Of a stretch of 54,482 nucleotides of DNA, positions 26,503 through 34,671 are shown in pieces; positions within the stretch are counted from its first letter, which is position 1, and every line of letters begins with the position of its first letter. The position numbers and the translations under genes are program-made. The notes beneath the pieces are model-generated. The model saw only the letters and a list, made by a program, of their open reading frames with translations, did not search any database and was not told where the DNA came from. The DNA is from an uncultured virus (IMG/VR IMGVR_UViG_2061766007_000234) (taxonomy: Duplodnaviria > Heunggongvirae > Uroviricota > Caudoviricetes): IMG/VR virus record IMGVR_UViG_2061766007_000234. One strand, 5' to 3'.

Positions 26503-26580
26503 AAAGGGAATATATGCTATAATAAAAAAGCCGTTCCCGCGTAGCGGGTCGAAAAAATTAAGGGAATGGAGCATATCAAA

Positions 26581-27060
26581 ATGAGTGTACTTAAAAACAA
26601 GCGCGGACTGTCAAAAATGGAATTCTATCACAATGCGCGGAAGCTGCGCAAAGAAATGACAGAACTTGTCCGGCGTGATTTCGGAGTACATTCACGGCGA
26701 AACGCTTCAAAACTAGATCCGTCATTGCCGGACGACTGGTATGATGAGGATATGGCTGAAATTGCACGGAACATAAGGCTTCTGCTTAGAAACCTTATGT
26801 GGAACATTACCGCTGCAAATACAATTTATGCGAAGAATGAGCTTGAGCTCGCGAAACGACGCGAGTATCAGACTGCGGCAATAATAAACTGCCAGCAGCT
26901 CATTCAGGAGCTTGAATTCTGCTGCGACACGCTTCCGCTGCGTGTTGATAAGCTGCAGCCGTATCTGGAAGCGATCAGCTTTGAAATAAAGCTGCTCAAA
27001 GGCTGGCGGAAATCGGGCAATAAAATTTCTGTACCGTTTGCAGAAAAGCCCGATTTATGA
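26581..27060 (+). CDS. avd: DGR accessory variability determinant (Avd-like)
   Basis: 'MSVLKNKRGLSKMEF', 'AANTIY', 'RREYQ', 'LLKGWRKS'; lies between target gene and TR. Confidence 0.8.
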   Translation: MSVLKNKRGLSKMEFYHNARKLRKEMTELVRRDFGVHSRRNASKLDPSLPDDWYDEDMAEIARNIRLLLRNLMWNITAANTIYAKNELELAKRREYQTAAIINCQQLIQELEFCCDTLPLRVDKLQPYLEAISFEIKLLKGWRKSGNKISVPFAEKPDL

Positions 27061-27089
27061 TGTATAATAAGACAAGGGTGTTCCCTGTA

Positions 27090-27171
27090 ACCTCCAATTG
27101 GTGCAATTGCAACAACAATGGAAATGCCAACAACAACAACAATGCCACTGAGGCTGGCGGCGTTGCGCCCG
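27090..27171 (+). ncRNA. DGR template region (TR)
   Basis: AAC/AAT-rich copy of VR located between avd and RT. Confidence 0.95.
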
Positions 27172-27461
27172 ATTCCGTGAGGCGGCACACGTCAGGCTTT
27201 TTTAAGCCGAGCCGTCCGACACAGAAGGAGGAAACATCCTGCGGACTGGCTTTAAGCCCCCGCAAAAAGTTGTTCTGACACGCCCGTGCGGACGCGGACG
27301 GGAAACCGTCCATGCATGGCGCTCATGTTTACGGCGGAGCGTTTCATGCACGGTGGCGCAGGCGGCATATTCCGTAAGACGGGCACAGGTTCCGGCGTGG
27401 GAGCCTGACAACTGTCCGTATGCCGTGCAGGACTGGGTTTTATTTTTTTTAGGAGAACGCG

Positions 27462-28601
27462 ATGAGCGACAAAAGACATGAAGCACGTTATCAGCGGCGG
27501 AAAGCCCGCCGTGAGCAGAAACGCGCCGAAAAAATCGGGCGGTTCGACGACTTCAATCTTGTGACGGATGCCGACAACCTGTACGCTGCTTTCAAACGGT
27601 CGAAGCGCGGCGTTACGTGGAAAGAGAGCGTCCAGCGCTATGAAGCAAATCTTCTTGCAAACGTGATAGAAACCAGACGGAAACTTCTTGCCGGAGAAGA
27701 TGTGCGCCGTGGCTTCGTTGAATTCGACGTTAACGAGCGCGGAAAGATGCGGCATATCAGGAGCGTGCATATCTCCGAACGTGTTGTGCAGAAATGCCTG
27801 TGCACAGAAGTCTTGTCTCCGATTCTGGAACGCCCGCTTATTTATGATAACGGCGCGTCTATCCGGGGCAAAGGAACGTATTTTGCTACAAGCCGGCTTG
27901 TAACGCATCTCCGGCGGTTTTACAGGGCAAACGGCAATTCAAATGACGGATATGCCCTTATCATCGATTTCAGAAAGTATTTTGACAGCATAGACCACAA
28001 GGTTCTTGCAGACCAGCTCGGACGGTATATAAAGGACGTGCACATAAGGAAACTTCTCTGGTCTTTTATCCAGGCGTTCGGACCGGAGAAGTCGCTCGGG
28101 CTTGGAAGCGAGATTTCTCAAATCTGCGCCGTGTTCTTTCCGAACAGGCTTGACCACTTCATCAAGGAAAATCTGCGCATAAAATACTACGGCCGGTTCA
28201 ACGACGATATGTATCTCATTCACCACAGCAAGGAATTTCTTAAAGACTGTCTGAATAAAATCAGGCGGGTTTGCGAAGAGCTCGGGATAACGCTGCATGA
28301 CAAAAAGACGCGGATAGTCCGGCTTACGCAGGGAATAAACTTCCTTAAAGGCCGCTACATTCTCACATCAACAGGAAAAATACTTAAGCTACCGAACCGC
28401 GATTCAACTCTGCGTATGCGCCGGAAGCTCAAGAAATTTAAAGGGCTTTGCGACAGTGGCTTTATGAAGCCGTCTGACATATGCACGTCGTACCAATCAT
28501 GGCGCGGATGCTATAAAAAGCGTTTCGACGCTTATTTCAGAATAAAGCGAATGGACAGGCTCTATAACGGGCTGTTCTTATACGGCACTGTGAGTGCTTA
28601 A
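27462..28601 (+). CDS. DGR reverse transcriptase
   Basis: 'ERGKMRHI', 'DFRKYFDSI', DGR-type 'LGSEISQ', catalytic 'RFNDD', 'INFLKG'; AGGAG RBS. Confidence 0.95.
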   Translation: MSDKRHEARYQRRKARREQKRAEKIGRFDDFNLVTDADNLYAAFKRSKRGVTWKESVQRYEANLLANVIETRRKLLAGEDVRRGFVEFDVNERGKMRHIRSVHISERVVQKCLCTEVLSPILERPLIYDNGASIRGKGTYFATSRLVTHLRRFYRANGNSNDGYALIIDFRKYFDSIDHKVLADQLGRYIKDVHIRKLLWSFIQAFGPEKSLGLGSEISQICAVFFPNRLDHFIKENLRIKYYGRFNDDMYLIHHSKEFLKDCLNKIRRVCEELGITLHDKKTRIVRLTQGINFLKGRYILTSTGKILKLPNRDSTLRMRRKLKKFKGLCDSGFMKPSDICTSYQSWRGCYKKRFDAYFRIKRMDRLYNGLFLYGTVSA

Positions 28602-31142: not shown

Positions 31143-32204
31143 ATGAGCGTAAAAGTACGCGAACAGCGCGGAAAGCTGTATCTCGATATTTATCACAACG
31201 GAACACGAAAATGGGAGTCGCTGCACATAACATTGAGCGACGACAAGAAGCGGAACAAGGAGCTGTACAGGCTCGCCGAGGTCTGCCGCACCAAGCGCGA
31301 GGCGCAGCTTCTTTCTGGTGAATGGGACATAAAGGGCGACGGAGCCGACCGGATTACGCTCGCCGGATATGTCAGGAACTACGCCAAGAACACGAACACA
31401 AAATCAATGACAGTTCTTGCCCGTCATATTGAAAGTTTCGACAACGGGGCTGTGATCCGCATCGGGCAGGTAACTTCCAAATGGATAGAGGATTTTCAGA
31501 CATACCTTCTGCACAGGACAAAGCCGAACGGCAAGCCCATCTCGCAGTCTAGCGTAGGCGCGTACATGAGGCTTCTGCGTGCGGTTTTCCGCAAAGCCGC
31601 CGCCGAAGGCACTATAAGCCGGGACCCCGTGGTTCCGGTTACCCTTACAAAAGTTATAGACCCGGAGATGGTCTTTCTGACTGCAGAAGAATTGAAGCAG
31701 CTTGCATCTGTTGTGCCGGAATCTGATTTCGGCAAGGAAGTGCGGCGGGCGTTCATCTTTGCGTGCTTTACGGGCTTGCGCGTTTCTGACGTTGAATCTC
31801 TCTCTTGGGGAATGATTGAGCGCGACCCGCCGCAGATAATCAAGCGGCAGAAAAAGACCAGGAGCACAGTCTATATTCCGCTGAACAAGACCGCGGAAAG
31901 CCTTATCTTTGACGGAACGGAACACACGCCCGACGAGCGTGTCTTTGCGCTTGACGGCAAGACCGGAATAGACAGAAGCTACAGGACGCTGAAAACTTGG
32001 GCAGAAGAAGCCGGAATACAGAAGAAAATCGGCTGGCATACGGCGCGGCGCACGTTCGCCACGCTTACACTGGGGCACGGAGCTGATGCTGTTACGGTGG
32101 CGCGTCTGCTCGGCCATACAGGGCTTAGCCAGGTGATGAAGTACGCCAAAGCGACAGACGAAATGAAGCGCCGAGCGGTTGATGCACTGCCGGACGTGCT
32201 ATGA
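31143..32204 (+). CDS. int: Tyrosine integrase
   Basis: 'TGLRVSD', 'QKKT', 'HTARRTFAT', 'LLGH', catalytic Y in 'MKYAK'. Confidence 0.95.
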   Translation: MSVKVREQRGKLYLDIYHNGTRKWESLHITLSDDKKRNKELYRLAEVCRTKREAQLLSGEWDIKGDGADRITLAGYVRNYAKNTNTKSMTVLARHIESFDNGAVIRIGQVTSKWIEDFQTYLLHRTKPNGKPISQSSVGAYMRLLRAVFRKAAAEGTISRDPVVPVTLTKVIDPEMVFLTAEELKQLASVVPESDFGKEVRRAFIFACFTGLRVSDVESLSWGMIERDPPQIIKRQKKTRSTVYIPLNKTAESLIFDGTEHTPDERVFALDGKTGIDRSYRTLKTWAEEAGIQKKIGWHTARRTFATLTLGHGADAVTVARLLGHTGLSQVMKYAKATDEMKRRAVDALPDVL

Positions 32205-32390
32205 CATGGGTATGTTATCCGATGCCGATAGGACGGCATATATATGCCATATATACGGCATACCTATGACATCGGACGGCGATATATCGGCATCCGATGT
32301 CGATATATCGGTGTTCAATAACTATAATACTTAATACTAAATTCTAAATTCTTAATACTAAATTCTAAATACTAAATTTAAATACTTAAT
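32205..32390. repeat. Iteron-like array plus AT-rich 7-mer repeats; copy B, related to 7801-8232
   Basis: GGCATATATATGCC, CATACCTATGACATCGGACG, CGATATATCG, then AATAACTATAATACTTAATACT and TAAAT(A/T)C repeats. Confidence 0.8.
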
Positions 32391-32468
32391 GCATTTTTGA
32401 ATGGTCATGCATGACCATCCAAAAGATGCGGAACATGCGTCTTTACTTGAATCAGTAGCGGTCGGCTA

Positions 32469-32843
32469 TCAGATAATATTTTGTGAACTTTCCTTTTCCA
32501 ACTTAAAGCAGAGCGCCTTGTATGCCTCTACGTTGTCTTTGATTATTTTTTGATATTCGGCTGGCAGCCTGCTTATGTCTTGGGCAAGTTCAAGAATTTC
32601 CGGCGGCGGCAGTTTGGTGTCAGCTTGAGAAAACTCTTTTCCAGTGATGAGCCATTCAAGCGAAACGTTTAAATACTTTGATATTTGCAATGCTATATCA
32701 GCAGCTGGAATAGAATCTCTGCGTTTCCAGTCTGTAAAAGCCTGTACTGATTGCCCGATTTCTTCTGCAAGGGCAAGTCTTTTTATATTCTTTTTTTTAA
32801 GAATTATATCAATTCTCTCTACAAACTCTTTCCCATTAGCCAT
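32469..32843 (-). CDS. CI-like XRE-family repressor
   Basis: HTH 'LAEEIGQSVQAFTDWKRRDSIP…VSLEWLITG'; divergent from the early operon. Confidence 0.85.
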   Translation of the reverse strand: MANGKEFVERIDIILKKKNIKRLALAEEIGQSVQAFTDWKRRDSIPAADIALQISKYLNVSLEWLITGKEFSQADTKLPPPEILELAQDISRLPAEYQKIIKDNVEAYKALCFKLEKESSQNII

Positions 32844-32865
32844 TCTTTTTATTTTCGTAAAAAAA

Positions 32866-32944
32866 CAAGCAAATTGCCACAAATTTTGCTTGACAGTTCA
32901 AGCAGATTGCTTTATGTTTAATTTAACAGCAAGCAAAATGCTTG
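32866..32944. promoter_or_regulatory. Operator array overlapping the rightward promoter
   Basis: CAAGCA-N3-TGCTTG consensus at 32866, 32899, 32930 (perfect), half-site at 32887-32892; TTGACA (32890)-17 bp-TATGTT (32913). Confidence 0.75.
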
Positions 32945-32949
32945 ATTTC

Positions 32950-33022
32950 GGAACAGGGTACCCTGTTCGCAGGTCTTGACAAAGCCCTGCGAACAAAACC
33001 GCCTGACGGCGGACGTTGTTCC
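32950..33022. ncRNA. Candidate C4/CI-like three-way-junction RNA (unit 1)
   Basis: Closing stem GGAACAG/TTGTTCC with two hairpins whose loops are complementary to 34045-34113. Confidence 0.5.
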
Positions 33023-33209
33023 AATTGGCTTTCTGTGCCGGCAGAAAGTGATATGAAACAGTTAATTCGAGGCTTGTTAAACAGGCAGGAGTTCCGGCAG
33101 ATTTCCTGCACATCTGTTTTTCATGCCTCTTTTTTTTGAACATTGCAGGTTAAACCCTGCTGACCGGCGGCTGGCTACTGCCGGAATAAAAGAACCGATA
33201 AGACAGAAG

Positions 33210-33288
33210 AACCCATAAACCAAGGGGAAGTTCCGTATTATCGGGCGGAACATTCTGCAAAGCCAGCAGACCCCTTGATTTATGGGTT
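33210..33288 (+). ncRNA. Candidate C4-like antisense RNA (unit 2)
   Basis: 18-bp closing stem with one mismatch; loops TTATCGG and AGCCAGC complementary to upstream CCGATAA (33195) and GCTGGCT (33170). Confidence 0.6.
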
Positions 33289-33325
33289 TTTTATTTCCCG
33301 CCAAAAAGCGGAAGGAGAAAAGGAC

Positions 33326-34033
33326 ATGGTGCAGCGTGAAACAACTACAGAAATCCAAACTGTCCAGACTTGGGAAAACAGCGAGTTTGGAAGCGTGCGT
33401 ACTGTAATGCAGAAAAACGAACCTTGGTTCGTTGCGAAGGATGTCGCTTTGATTCTTGGCTTCAAGCAAGCAAATGATATGACCAAGCGGCTTGATGAAG
33501 ATGAAAAGGGTCGGACTATTAGTCCGACCCTGCGCGGAAGCCAGAAAGTTCAAATCATAAATGAAAGCGGGCTGTATCATGCAATCTTCATGAGCAGAAA
33601 AACGGAGGCTAAAACCTTTCGCCGCTGGGTTACGGAAGAAGTGCTTCCCGCGATACGCCGGACTGGTTCCTTCGGACAAGCCGCACGGCCGGTAACTCTT
33701 GAAGAGTTTGAAAAGTTTGCGGATAGGCTGACTGACCGCATTTCTATGCTTGAGCAGAATGCAGTCAGAGGAAATGCGGCCGCACCTGACGTTCCGGATT
33801 TTTCTGATGCACGTGAATGTGTCGTTGCGCTCGTAAAGAAAGCGGCAAAAGAAAACTGCATGAGCGAACGCGAGATATGGAGCGACCTTTACCGCAGCTA
33901 TGAAAAGATAACCGGAATTCCGCTTATGAAGAGCGCAAGGGCTCTGGGCATGAGCGTGATTTCTTATGTTGACCTTATCGGCCGCATGGAAAACTTGAAG
34001 CGGTTCGCCGAGCAGGTGCTCTGGTTCGTTTAG
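33326..34033 (+). CDS. Bro-N family antirepressor
   Basis: 'FGSVRTV', 'EPWFVAKDVA', 'INESGLY', 'FRRWVTEEVLPAIRRTG'. Confidence 0.9.
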   Translation: MVQRETTTEIQTVQTWENSEFGSVRTVMQKNEPWFVAKDVALILGFKQANDMTKRLDEDEKGRTISPTLRGSQKVQIINESGLYHAIFMSRKTEAKTFRRWVTEEVLPAIRRTGSFGQAARPVTLEEFEKFADRLTDRISMLEQNAVRGNAAAPDVPDFSDARECVVALVKKAAKENCMSEREIWSDLYRSYEKITGIPLMKSARALGMSVISYVDLIGRMENLKRFAEQVLWFV

Positions 34034-34137
34034 GGCAAAAAAAACGCCCTGTCAGGGCGGAACAAATAAACCTTTTGGGAGGAATCCCCGCACTACTTAT
34101 CCGTCAAGACCTGTCGTGCGGGGCAAGTGAAACACTT

Positions 34138-34305
34138 ATGGACAGTGTAGCAGAAAAAGCCGCCGTTAGTAAAGACGGCGCACAGGTGGTGAACGCAAGG
34201 CTTATGGAGCTTATAAGCGCGCTCAGCAAGTCGGGTTTCCGCGTGCTAAAAATCGACACGAACGGAACTGAATACAATCTTATGATCCGCGACACGGCGG
34301 ATTAA
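34138..34305 (+). CDS. Small hypothetical protein
   Basis: ORF MDSVAEKAAV… between ant and the next gene; weak RBS. Confidence 0.4.
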   Translation: MDSVAEKAAVSKDGAQVVNARLMELISALSKSGFRVLKIDTNGTEYNLMIRDTAD

Positions 34306-34328: not shown

Positions 34329-34671
34329 ATGTTGAACGTAACGGGTGTAGCGGATTGTTTTCCGCGCGGGCTTTTTTGAGGCTTATGCGCAGAAGAAAAT
34401 TACAAAGTCGCAGTTTCTGTTTTCTTTTTCCGTATGGCAGAAGAAGCACGGGACCAACTACGACACAAAGGGCTTTGTATCTGCCGGTGCCCTGTATCTG
34501 ATGTACCGGGGAATCGGCGGCGAAGTCTATAACGGCAGAATCTTTTTTAACCTAGGCAACAAAACTTATTTAGTCGGAAATATTTTCGAATTCCGGCGAA
34601 GAGTTGATTTTGCCATGCTTGAAAAAAAGCTGTGGGAAGGAGGCAGCGGATGCACGGAGGTGACTCTGTAA
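34329..34671 (+). pseudogene. Frameshifted hypothetical gene (about 113 codons)
   Basis: GGAGG RBS + ATG 34329 stops right after a T6 run; the +1 frame continues open to TAA 34671. Confidence 0.5.

Follow-up and report, generated by a model that had tools for sequence, protein, structure and literature searches.

A predicted folded promoter with permuted -10 and -35 boxes in the immunity region of a Treponema prophage

The analyzed window, 54,482 nucleotides of DNA from an uncultured tailed virus (IMG/VR IMGVR_UViG_2061766007_000234), carries on its plus strand, at positions 32950..33022, an element composed of three overlapping inverted repeats and predicted to form a cloverleaf on either strand. 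Within it the -10 and -35 boxes stand in reversed linear order, each at the tip of a hairpin, and folding places them 17 nt apart. The element is real, conserved and widespread. We consider it somewhat better than even (a probability of roughly 55%) that it acts as a structure-dependent sigma-70 promoter formed by folded DNA, which would provide a repressor-independent transcription start near position 33011.

The immunity region of the phage

The window represents a tailed temperate phage, with genes for sheath, baseplate, integrase and a diversity-generating retroelement (DGR). The latter occupies positions 26566-28601 and consists of an Avd-like gene, an RT-2 RNA recognized by Rfam (27192-27456) and a reverse transcriptase (RT). 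The closest relatives are records assigned to Treponema or Treponemataceae; three of the eight bear other names and are probably misbinned. The region that includes 32950-33022 serves a Treponema prophage as its immunity switch and lacks Cro.

On the minus strand this region encodes a cI-like repressor of 124 aa (32469..32843) with an HTH domain only and no peptidase domain match. Three operator-like palindromes (32866..32944, starting at 32866, 32899 and 32930), probably serving as operators, surround an ordinary plus-strand promoter, P_R (TTGACA-17-TATGTT, 32890..32918), which is not followed by a cro gene. P_R is succeeded by a structured leader of 400 nt, and then by the gene of a Bro-N antirepressor (33326..34033, plus strand) and a 55-aa open reading frame (34138..34305, plus strand) that is conserved in the relatives and belongs to no known family. 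The loci L098 and L099 have another gene in place of Bro-N, and both elements are retained there. In a close relative, the palindromes and the repressor HTH are replaced together as a block; this exchange between close phages (32621-32946) stops just before the element.

Several other features of the region were recorded. The segment between the integrase and repressor genes (32202-32400) contains imperfect inverted repeats and an AT-rich short tandem repeat. A hairpin lies within the Bro-N gene (33507-33531), and five relatives each have a hairpin of differing sequence at about the same place. The reading frame at 34339-34671 is shifted by one extra T in a run at 34372; it is intact (113 aa) in L088, and the extra T is absent from contigs of runs X3 and X8, so a slippage switch is possible. 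In L099 the -10 box of P_R is missing upstream of the element, apparently deleted between operator repeats, either in reality or by assembly collapse. A Treponema CRISPR array with 19 spacers in L133 (G044:C147) includes one that overlaps the operator and palindrome of the window, and a second that matches L098 and L099 with two mismatches. The supposed lack of LexA in Treponema was dropped as an argument, LexA being present in three of five genomes.

Geometry, covariation and distribution of the element

The first-pass annotation had described 32950-33022 as a three-way junction resembling an antisense immunity RNA. All the strings and coordinates that it listed were confirmed, including this junction (-38.2 kcal/mol), the hairpins at 34045-59 and 34086-34123 and an 18-bp palindrome. 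The junction is the cloverleaf seen in the short class of elements described below. Its first arm is the perfect palindrome (32951..32968), which carries a -10 box on both strands; on the plus strand the hexamer TAnnnT (32959..32964) lies 5′ of the -35 box. The second arm (32964..32995, plus strand) exposes the -35 hexamer TTGACA (32976..32981, plus strand) in its loop. The folded spacer of 17 nt is the sum of 9 nt following the -35 box (32982-90) and 8 nt preceding the -10 box (32951-58). The third hairpin (32999..33012, plus strand), with a stem of only 5 bp in the window, has a loop that corresponds to positions -7 to -4 when counted from the -35 box; by the same count, the predicted +1 would be G33011.

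The spacing was evaluated with a two-axis test, which superseded a noisy circular-fold detector. The axes of two abutting inverted repeats give the unit length, and this in turn gives the folded distance from the -35 box to any hexamer; the -10 box is excluded from the input, and the thresholds were chosen after examples were known. The sample comprised 625 TTGACA sites, with six duplicates, one CRISPR locus and 16 unrelated pattern matches excluded. Two abutting hairpins of at least 7 bp were found at 32 of these sites (30 loci), and in all 32 a TAnnnT hexamer was located at the folded distance of 17, in spite of six different geometries (unit lengths of 40, 44, 50, 51, 52 and 53). Seven control hexamers yielded a single positive among 21 sites, namely a true element read on its reverse strand; the positives obtained with TTGAAA (4 of 7) turned out to be element variants. 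The test missed the element of L027.

Two gap-free alignments, of 13 and 9 elements, were used to analyze conservation. The invariant columns are -12T, -11A, -7T, the partner of -7T and the -35 loop, with one further -10 base in one of the classes; judged from the alignments, they are essentially the consensus bases of sigma-70 promoters. The best-conserved part of the element is the palindrome, which the first-pass annotation had correctly located but treated as an aside, an alternative fold, overlooking its -10 consensus. Stem changes are double in 90 cases (43 + 47) and one-sided in a single case. The stems covary almost without G-U pairs; elsewhere in the leader, G-U accounts for 126 of 1132 predicted pairs. 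The few mismatches (3 G-T versus 6 A-C, P = 0.51) single out no strand. That wobble is so rare on both is compatible with the two strands being extruded, or else with homogenisation. In more distant repressor loci only the palindromic hairpin followed by a hairpin with a TTGACA loop is retained.

Covariance models, the matches of which contain both boxes by construction, detected the short class in at least 52 of 151 genomes of the genus and at least 18 of 151 of the family, often in several copies; strong matches to a 44-nt class occur in at least 2 of 151 genomes. The short class was compiled as 60 rows selected for a top-strand -10 box, one of them probably false. TAnnnT is found on the opposite strand as well in 59 of the 60, and the third hairpins are centred at -6 to -3 in 39 of 46 cases, typically looping out positions between -10 and +1. 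A longer class (20 rows) has TAnnnT on the opposite strand in 7 rows and a one-sided -10 box in 13, and lacks the third hairpin.

Most copies lie outside phages, where they precede promoterless accessory genes of Treponema. Among 43 non-phage copies, the -35 box in the loop matches 5-6 of 6 consensus positions in 42, the best linear -35 box upstream scores 3/6 or less in 42, and a full linear -10 box downstream of the loop was found in none. The predicted +1 is located 32-60 nt 5′ of the start codon in 36 of the 38 copies followed by a gene, and 21 of these genes are lipoprotein-like by a simple pattern. Chromosomal sites adjoin ruvC, uvrB and tRNA ligase genes, according to a scan of 29 of 126 neighbouring open reading frames. 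Next to ruvC the element and its lipoprotein gene are present in only 1 of 30 genomes, and thus constitute accessory DNA. Over 55 rows the loop reads TTGAAA (20), TTGACA (15) or TTGACT (6), and an upstream promoter is present in 12, largely at phage or repressor loci.

In 150 Clostridia genomes, examined as a sample outside Treponemataceae, the models found the same phage contig and four weak matches unconfirmed by the detector, while a draw from the phylum gave three strong matches, all within the family sample (38-39 candidates scored per genome in each case). Exact-pattern scans of viral contigs yielded 16 matches, none of them homologous, and two more patterns yielded none; annotated phages matched only the coding part of Bro-N. 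At four loci (L174, L182, L186 and L189) a repressor gene, a P_R-like promoter and the element precede membrane-protein genes instead of phage genes. Three elements (loci L286 and L287) are placed at 666-706 kb of G180:C1, a region of small co-oriented open reading frames, IS and a methylase gene with the appearance of a cassette array.

The leader, the downstream hairpin and a predicted small RNA

The remainder of the leader behaves, in sequence comparisons, like RNA, with its G-U pairs and two loop-loop complementarities showing compensatory changes. In the first of these (33030..33137, plus strand), loop 33036-41 is complementary to 33094-99, the apex of the terminator-like hairpin T1 (33069-33137, with U8), in 11 of 11 relatives, with one compensatory pair of changes. 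In the second (33163..33292, plus strand), loop 33171-76 is complementary to 33261-66 inside the terminator-like T2 (33210-33292), over 4-7 nt in 11 of 11 relatives and with compensation in L132. Positions 33030-33292 had no match in Rfam. This part of the leader is probably an attenuation switch in its own right. The earlier suggestion that the leader gates the antirepressor operon was supported. The only RNA contig found covers 32970-33209 (depth 5.2), and its 5′ end lies upstream of the predicted +1.

Beyond the Bro-N gene, the loop (34103-13) of a hairpin at 34086..34123 matches the -35 loop of the element. The first-pass annotation had proposed that two loops of the three-way junction pair with two downstream targets, through complements of 11, 6 and 7 nt. 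The 11-nt complement (32970-80/34103-13), each half of which occurs once in the window, arose in 23 of 2000 shuffles and is improbable as a coincidence, unlike the 6-nt and 7-nt ones (565 and 249 of 2000, respectively). Eleven close loci have enough sequence for comparison; several are near-identical, which lowers the number of independent cases. A downstream hairpin with a match of 10-14 nt to the leader loop is present in ten of them and absent from L092; selection on one loop match was supported. The second pairing is lost: the second hairpin does not keep its loop sequence, the partner assigned to this loop lacks complementarity in the relatives, and the 7-nt match survives, as 6 nt, in the closest relative only.

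The loop of the downstream hairpin is complementary on the plus strand in seven of the ten loci and inverted in three. An inverted loop is identical to the leader loop on the plus strand and no longer complementary to it; the alleles of L088 and L089 are exact reverse complements of each other. The stem shows compensatory changes around an unchanged loop core, and the flanks diverge. As no partner hairpin was detected in 22 distant loci, it is, by sequence comparison, an accessory of the close family. Two further ideas were rejected: no -10 box accompanies this hairpin at 16-18 nt, whichever way it is oriented, and it is therefore not a second complete element; and loop inversion was discarded as the activating event, the -35 loop never being found inverted beside the repressor.

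The minus-strand signals of the earlier annotation are present as described, i.e. a terminator with U8 and a TG-extended TACACT. The corresponding promoter (34144..34173, minus strand; -35 box 34168-73, -10 box 34144-49) is kept with 17-18-nt spacing in 10 of 10 relatives despite sequence changes, and a U-tail of at least 6 follows the terminator in 9 of 10 (both by eye). Because of this conservation, a minus-strand small RNA of about 100 nt (34037..34137), ending at terminator 34045-59 plus U8, is likely to be produced. It would overlap the downstream hairpin and be antisense to the start region of orf 34138. At 34078-34140, an SD-like GGAGG and the ATG of this orf have two conserved hairpins between them, which could be a split ribosome-binding site or the anti-SD of the small RNA. 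Further complementarities, between 34469-87 and the leader and between the small RNA and T2, are good in the window, but the words are lost in diverged relatives (by eye), and they were discarded.

Proposed function, alternative explanations and known systems

From the geometry, the covariation, the distribution and the position in front of genes, we infer how polymerase binding, the start site, the trigger and the small RNA could be related. In linear duplex DNA the -10 box precedes the -35 box, and the promoter would be silent. The cloverleaf would form once the template strand is exposed as a single strand or negative supercoiling extrudes both strands. The -35 arm of the template strand would then serve as the upstream duplex, with the -35 box at its tip, the palindrome would let the same strand provide the -10 box in the non-template sense 17 nt away, and the third arm would keep the start region open. 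RNA polymerase could initiate rightward at this pre-opened promoter near 33011. Since the element is situated downstream of the operators, the repressor could not block this start of the antirepressor operon, which might thus function as a Cro-less trigger or as a positive-feedback latch for induction; the transcript would still have to pass the two terminator-like leader hairpins. The loop of the small RNA, matching the -35 loop, may block or complete it, and either orientation would be tolerated because the target loop is proposed to be exposed on both strands.

The Frpo promoters discussed below count as a precedent for a folded promoter. Against it, region 4 of sigma normally needs a duplex -35 box, and a looped one is not duplex; no single-stranded stage is obvious for a tailed phage with a dsDNA genome; the RNA contig starts before the predicted +1; and the longer class, with its one-sided -10 box in 13 of 20 rows and missing third hairpin, does not fit a single-strand model.

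The longer class would be explained if the element were a latent promoter, in which hairpin-guided template switching duplicates the 40-53-bp unit and creates an ordinary -35/17/-10 junction beyond the operators, as reversible phase variation. Exact tandem duplications that yield a linear promoter do exist in L027, L029 and L127 (52×2.0, 53×1.9 and 52×2.0), one of them within a prophage that looks intact and lies on a single contig of 2.9 Mb, and at the L029 junction four bases agree with the inner strand and with neither flank, as fold-back fill-in predicts (by eye). All three, however, are in the longer class, for which duplication may be the switch, and none of 59 short-class elements, the class of the window, is duplicated. 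Contigs of runs X1, X3, X8 and X20, which drop rare variants, contain no duplication or inversion joint, and the third hairpin and two-sided palindrome are left unexplained. Dependence on RT was not supported either: RT is on the same contig in 4 of 22 cases and absent from 10 of 22 genomes or records, including that of L029. We regard duplication as an unlikely explanation of the element. Still less likely, in our opinion, is that the nascent P_R transcript, once folded, imitates a promoter and retains sigma or polymerase, as a 6S-like decoy or as a put-like antiterminator (RNA hairpins of the put type act on the polymerase that made them), permitting read-through of the leader terminators. 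Phage elements do lie at a near-fixed distance behind P_R (64-74 nt from its -35 box to the folded -10 box, where found), always on the transcribed strand and 5′ of terminator-like hairpins, in a region with no cro or N gene, and the single RNA contig spans the leader only; yet the non-phage copies mostly have no upstream promoter, and G-U pairs are nearly absent.

In identifying the element as an immunity RNA of the C4/CI antisense type that pairs with the downstream hairpin, the first-pass annotation overlooked that the invariant loop is the sigma-70 -35 consensus. This identification is probably not correct, and we consider it very unlikely. It would account for a 73-nt three-way junction with a closing stem that covaries in close relatives and for a loop match that outlasts its diverging flanks. 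The loop does not vary with immunity type: its core is invariant in 11 of 11 aligned leaders from phages that differ in repressor HTH and operators, contrary to the different specificity formerly ascribed to it. The lost second pairing, the target inverted in three of ten loci and missing from the distant ones, and the unexplained 17-nt rule are likewise at odds with such an RNA. The Rfam check suggested earlier gave no C4-type match even at E≤10; the RT-2 RNA was the only match in the window, and none was obtained at the element or in 20 other loci. We give equally little credence to a REP-like repeat, cassette end or protein-binding structure with an incidental likeness to promoter boxes. 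The copies are indeed multiple, scattered and on accessory DNA, some in cassette-like arrays, and perfect stems could stem from template-switch homogenisation, but the loop variants are typical -35 variants, the spacing is kept over six geometries, and orientation and distance to start codons are fixed.

If the folded promoter is real, single-stranded promoters would no longer be confined to the leading regions of plasmids but would reach prophage switches as well as genes of the chromosome, an induction route would be suggested for Cro-less phages with uncleavable repressors, and a 70-base reporter of single-stranded or supercoiled DNA would become available. Promoter finders and textbooks presume a -35 box ahead of the -10 box, and a literature search retrieved no description of a permuted folded element. 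We suggest more tentatively, as something short of probable, an undescribed class of bacterial promoters: DNA cloverleaves of about 70 bp with permuted boxes, which would offer a pre-opened sigma-70 promoter once extruded from the chromosome or kept single-stranded. Treponema would employ them on accessory surface-protein genes. In its prophages they would replace Cro and RecA-cleavable repressors, sensing the state of the DNA for induction, and a small RNA would adjust their response by pairing with the DNA loop that is exposed.

Among known systems, the Frpo/ssi promoters of conjugative plasmids (classes 1-3) form only by folding of one DNA strand, are silent as duplex and lie 5′ of genes on accessory DNA (PMC9849209, PMC11541004, PMC12672017). 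The predicted fold of the element likewise brings a consensus -35 and -10 box to promoter spacing. The Frpo/ssi promoters are described there as large single stem-loops of plasmid leading regions with boxes paired to complementary regions, whereas the element has about 70 bp, three arms, boxes reversed at hairpin tips and a -35 box without complement, and is found in prophage immunity regions and chromosomes. This distinction follows the published text of the Frpo reports, and their supplementary structure figures could narrow it.

The DRT2 concatemer promoter has its -10 and -35 boxes out of order within one unit and 17 bp apart over the repeat junction (PMC12039810). The element shares the permuted boxes and the 17 across a junction. 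The DRT2 system depends on a reverse transcriptase of its own and on a unit of 120 nt that encodes a repeat ORF, whereas the element shows no consistent RT link, and its unit lengths of 40-53 bp are for the most part not divisible by three and do not give the frame open across repeats that DRT2 has. The RT of the window is part of the DGR, 4 kb away, and not a dedicated adjacent enzyme of the DRT2 type.

C4-type antisense RNA is described as a fold of about 77 nt with three stems (PMC5320573). The element is similar to P1/P7 C4 and P4 CI in having a three-stem fold of about 75 nt that heads an antirepressor operon and a loop matching a downstream site, but it has one conserved match instead of two, a free target orientation and no variation of specificity. 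The resemblance to C4, an RNA that RNase P processes into a stable form, is one of size and fold only.

At the minus-strand origin of filamentous phages and at ssoA, RNA polymerase reads promoter-like boxes on folded single-stranded DNA, and the third loop of the element may resemble the CS-6 motif of ssoA; those origins prime replication, whereas the element points into protein genes. In IS circle-junction promoters and in lambda c17 a rearrangement joins a -35 with a -10 box, while in the element this join would be pre-built by intrastrand pairing.
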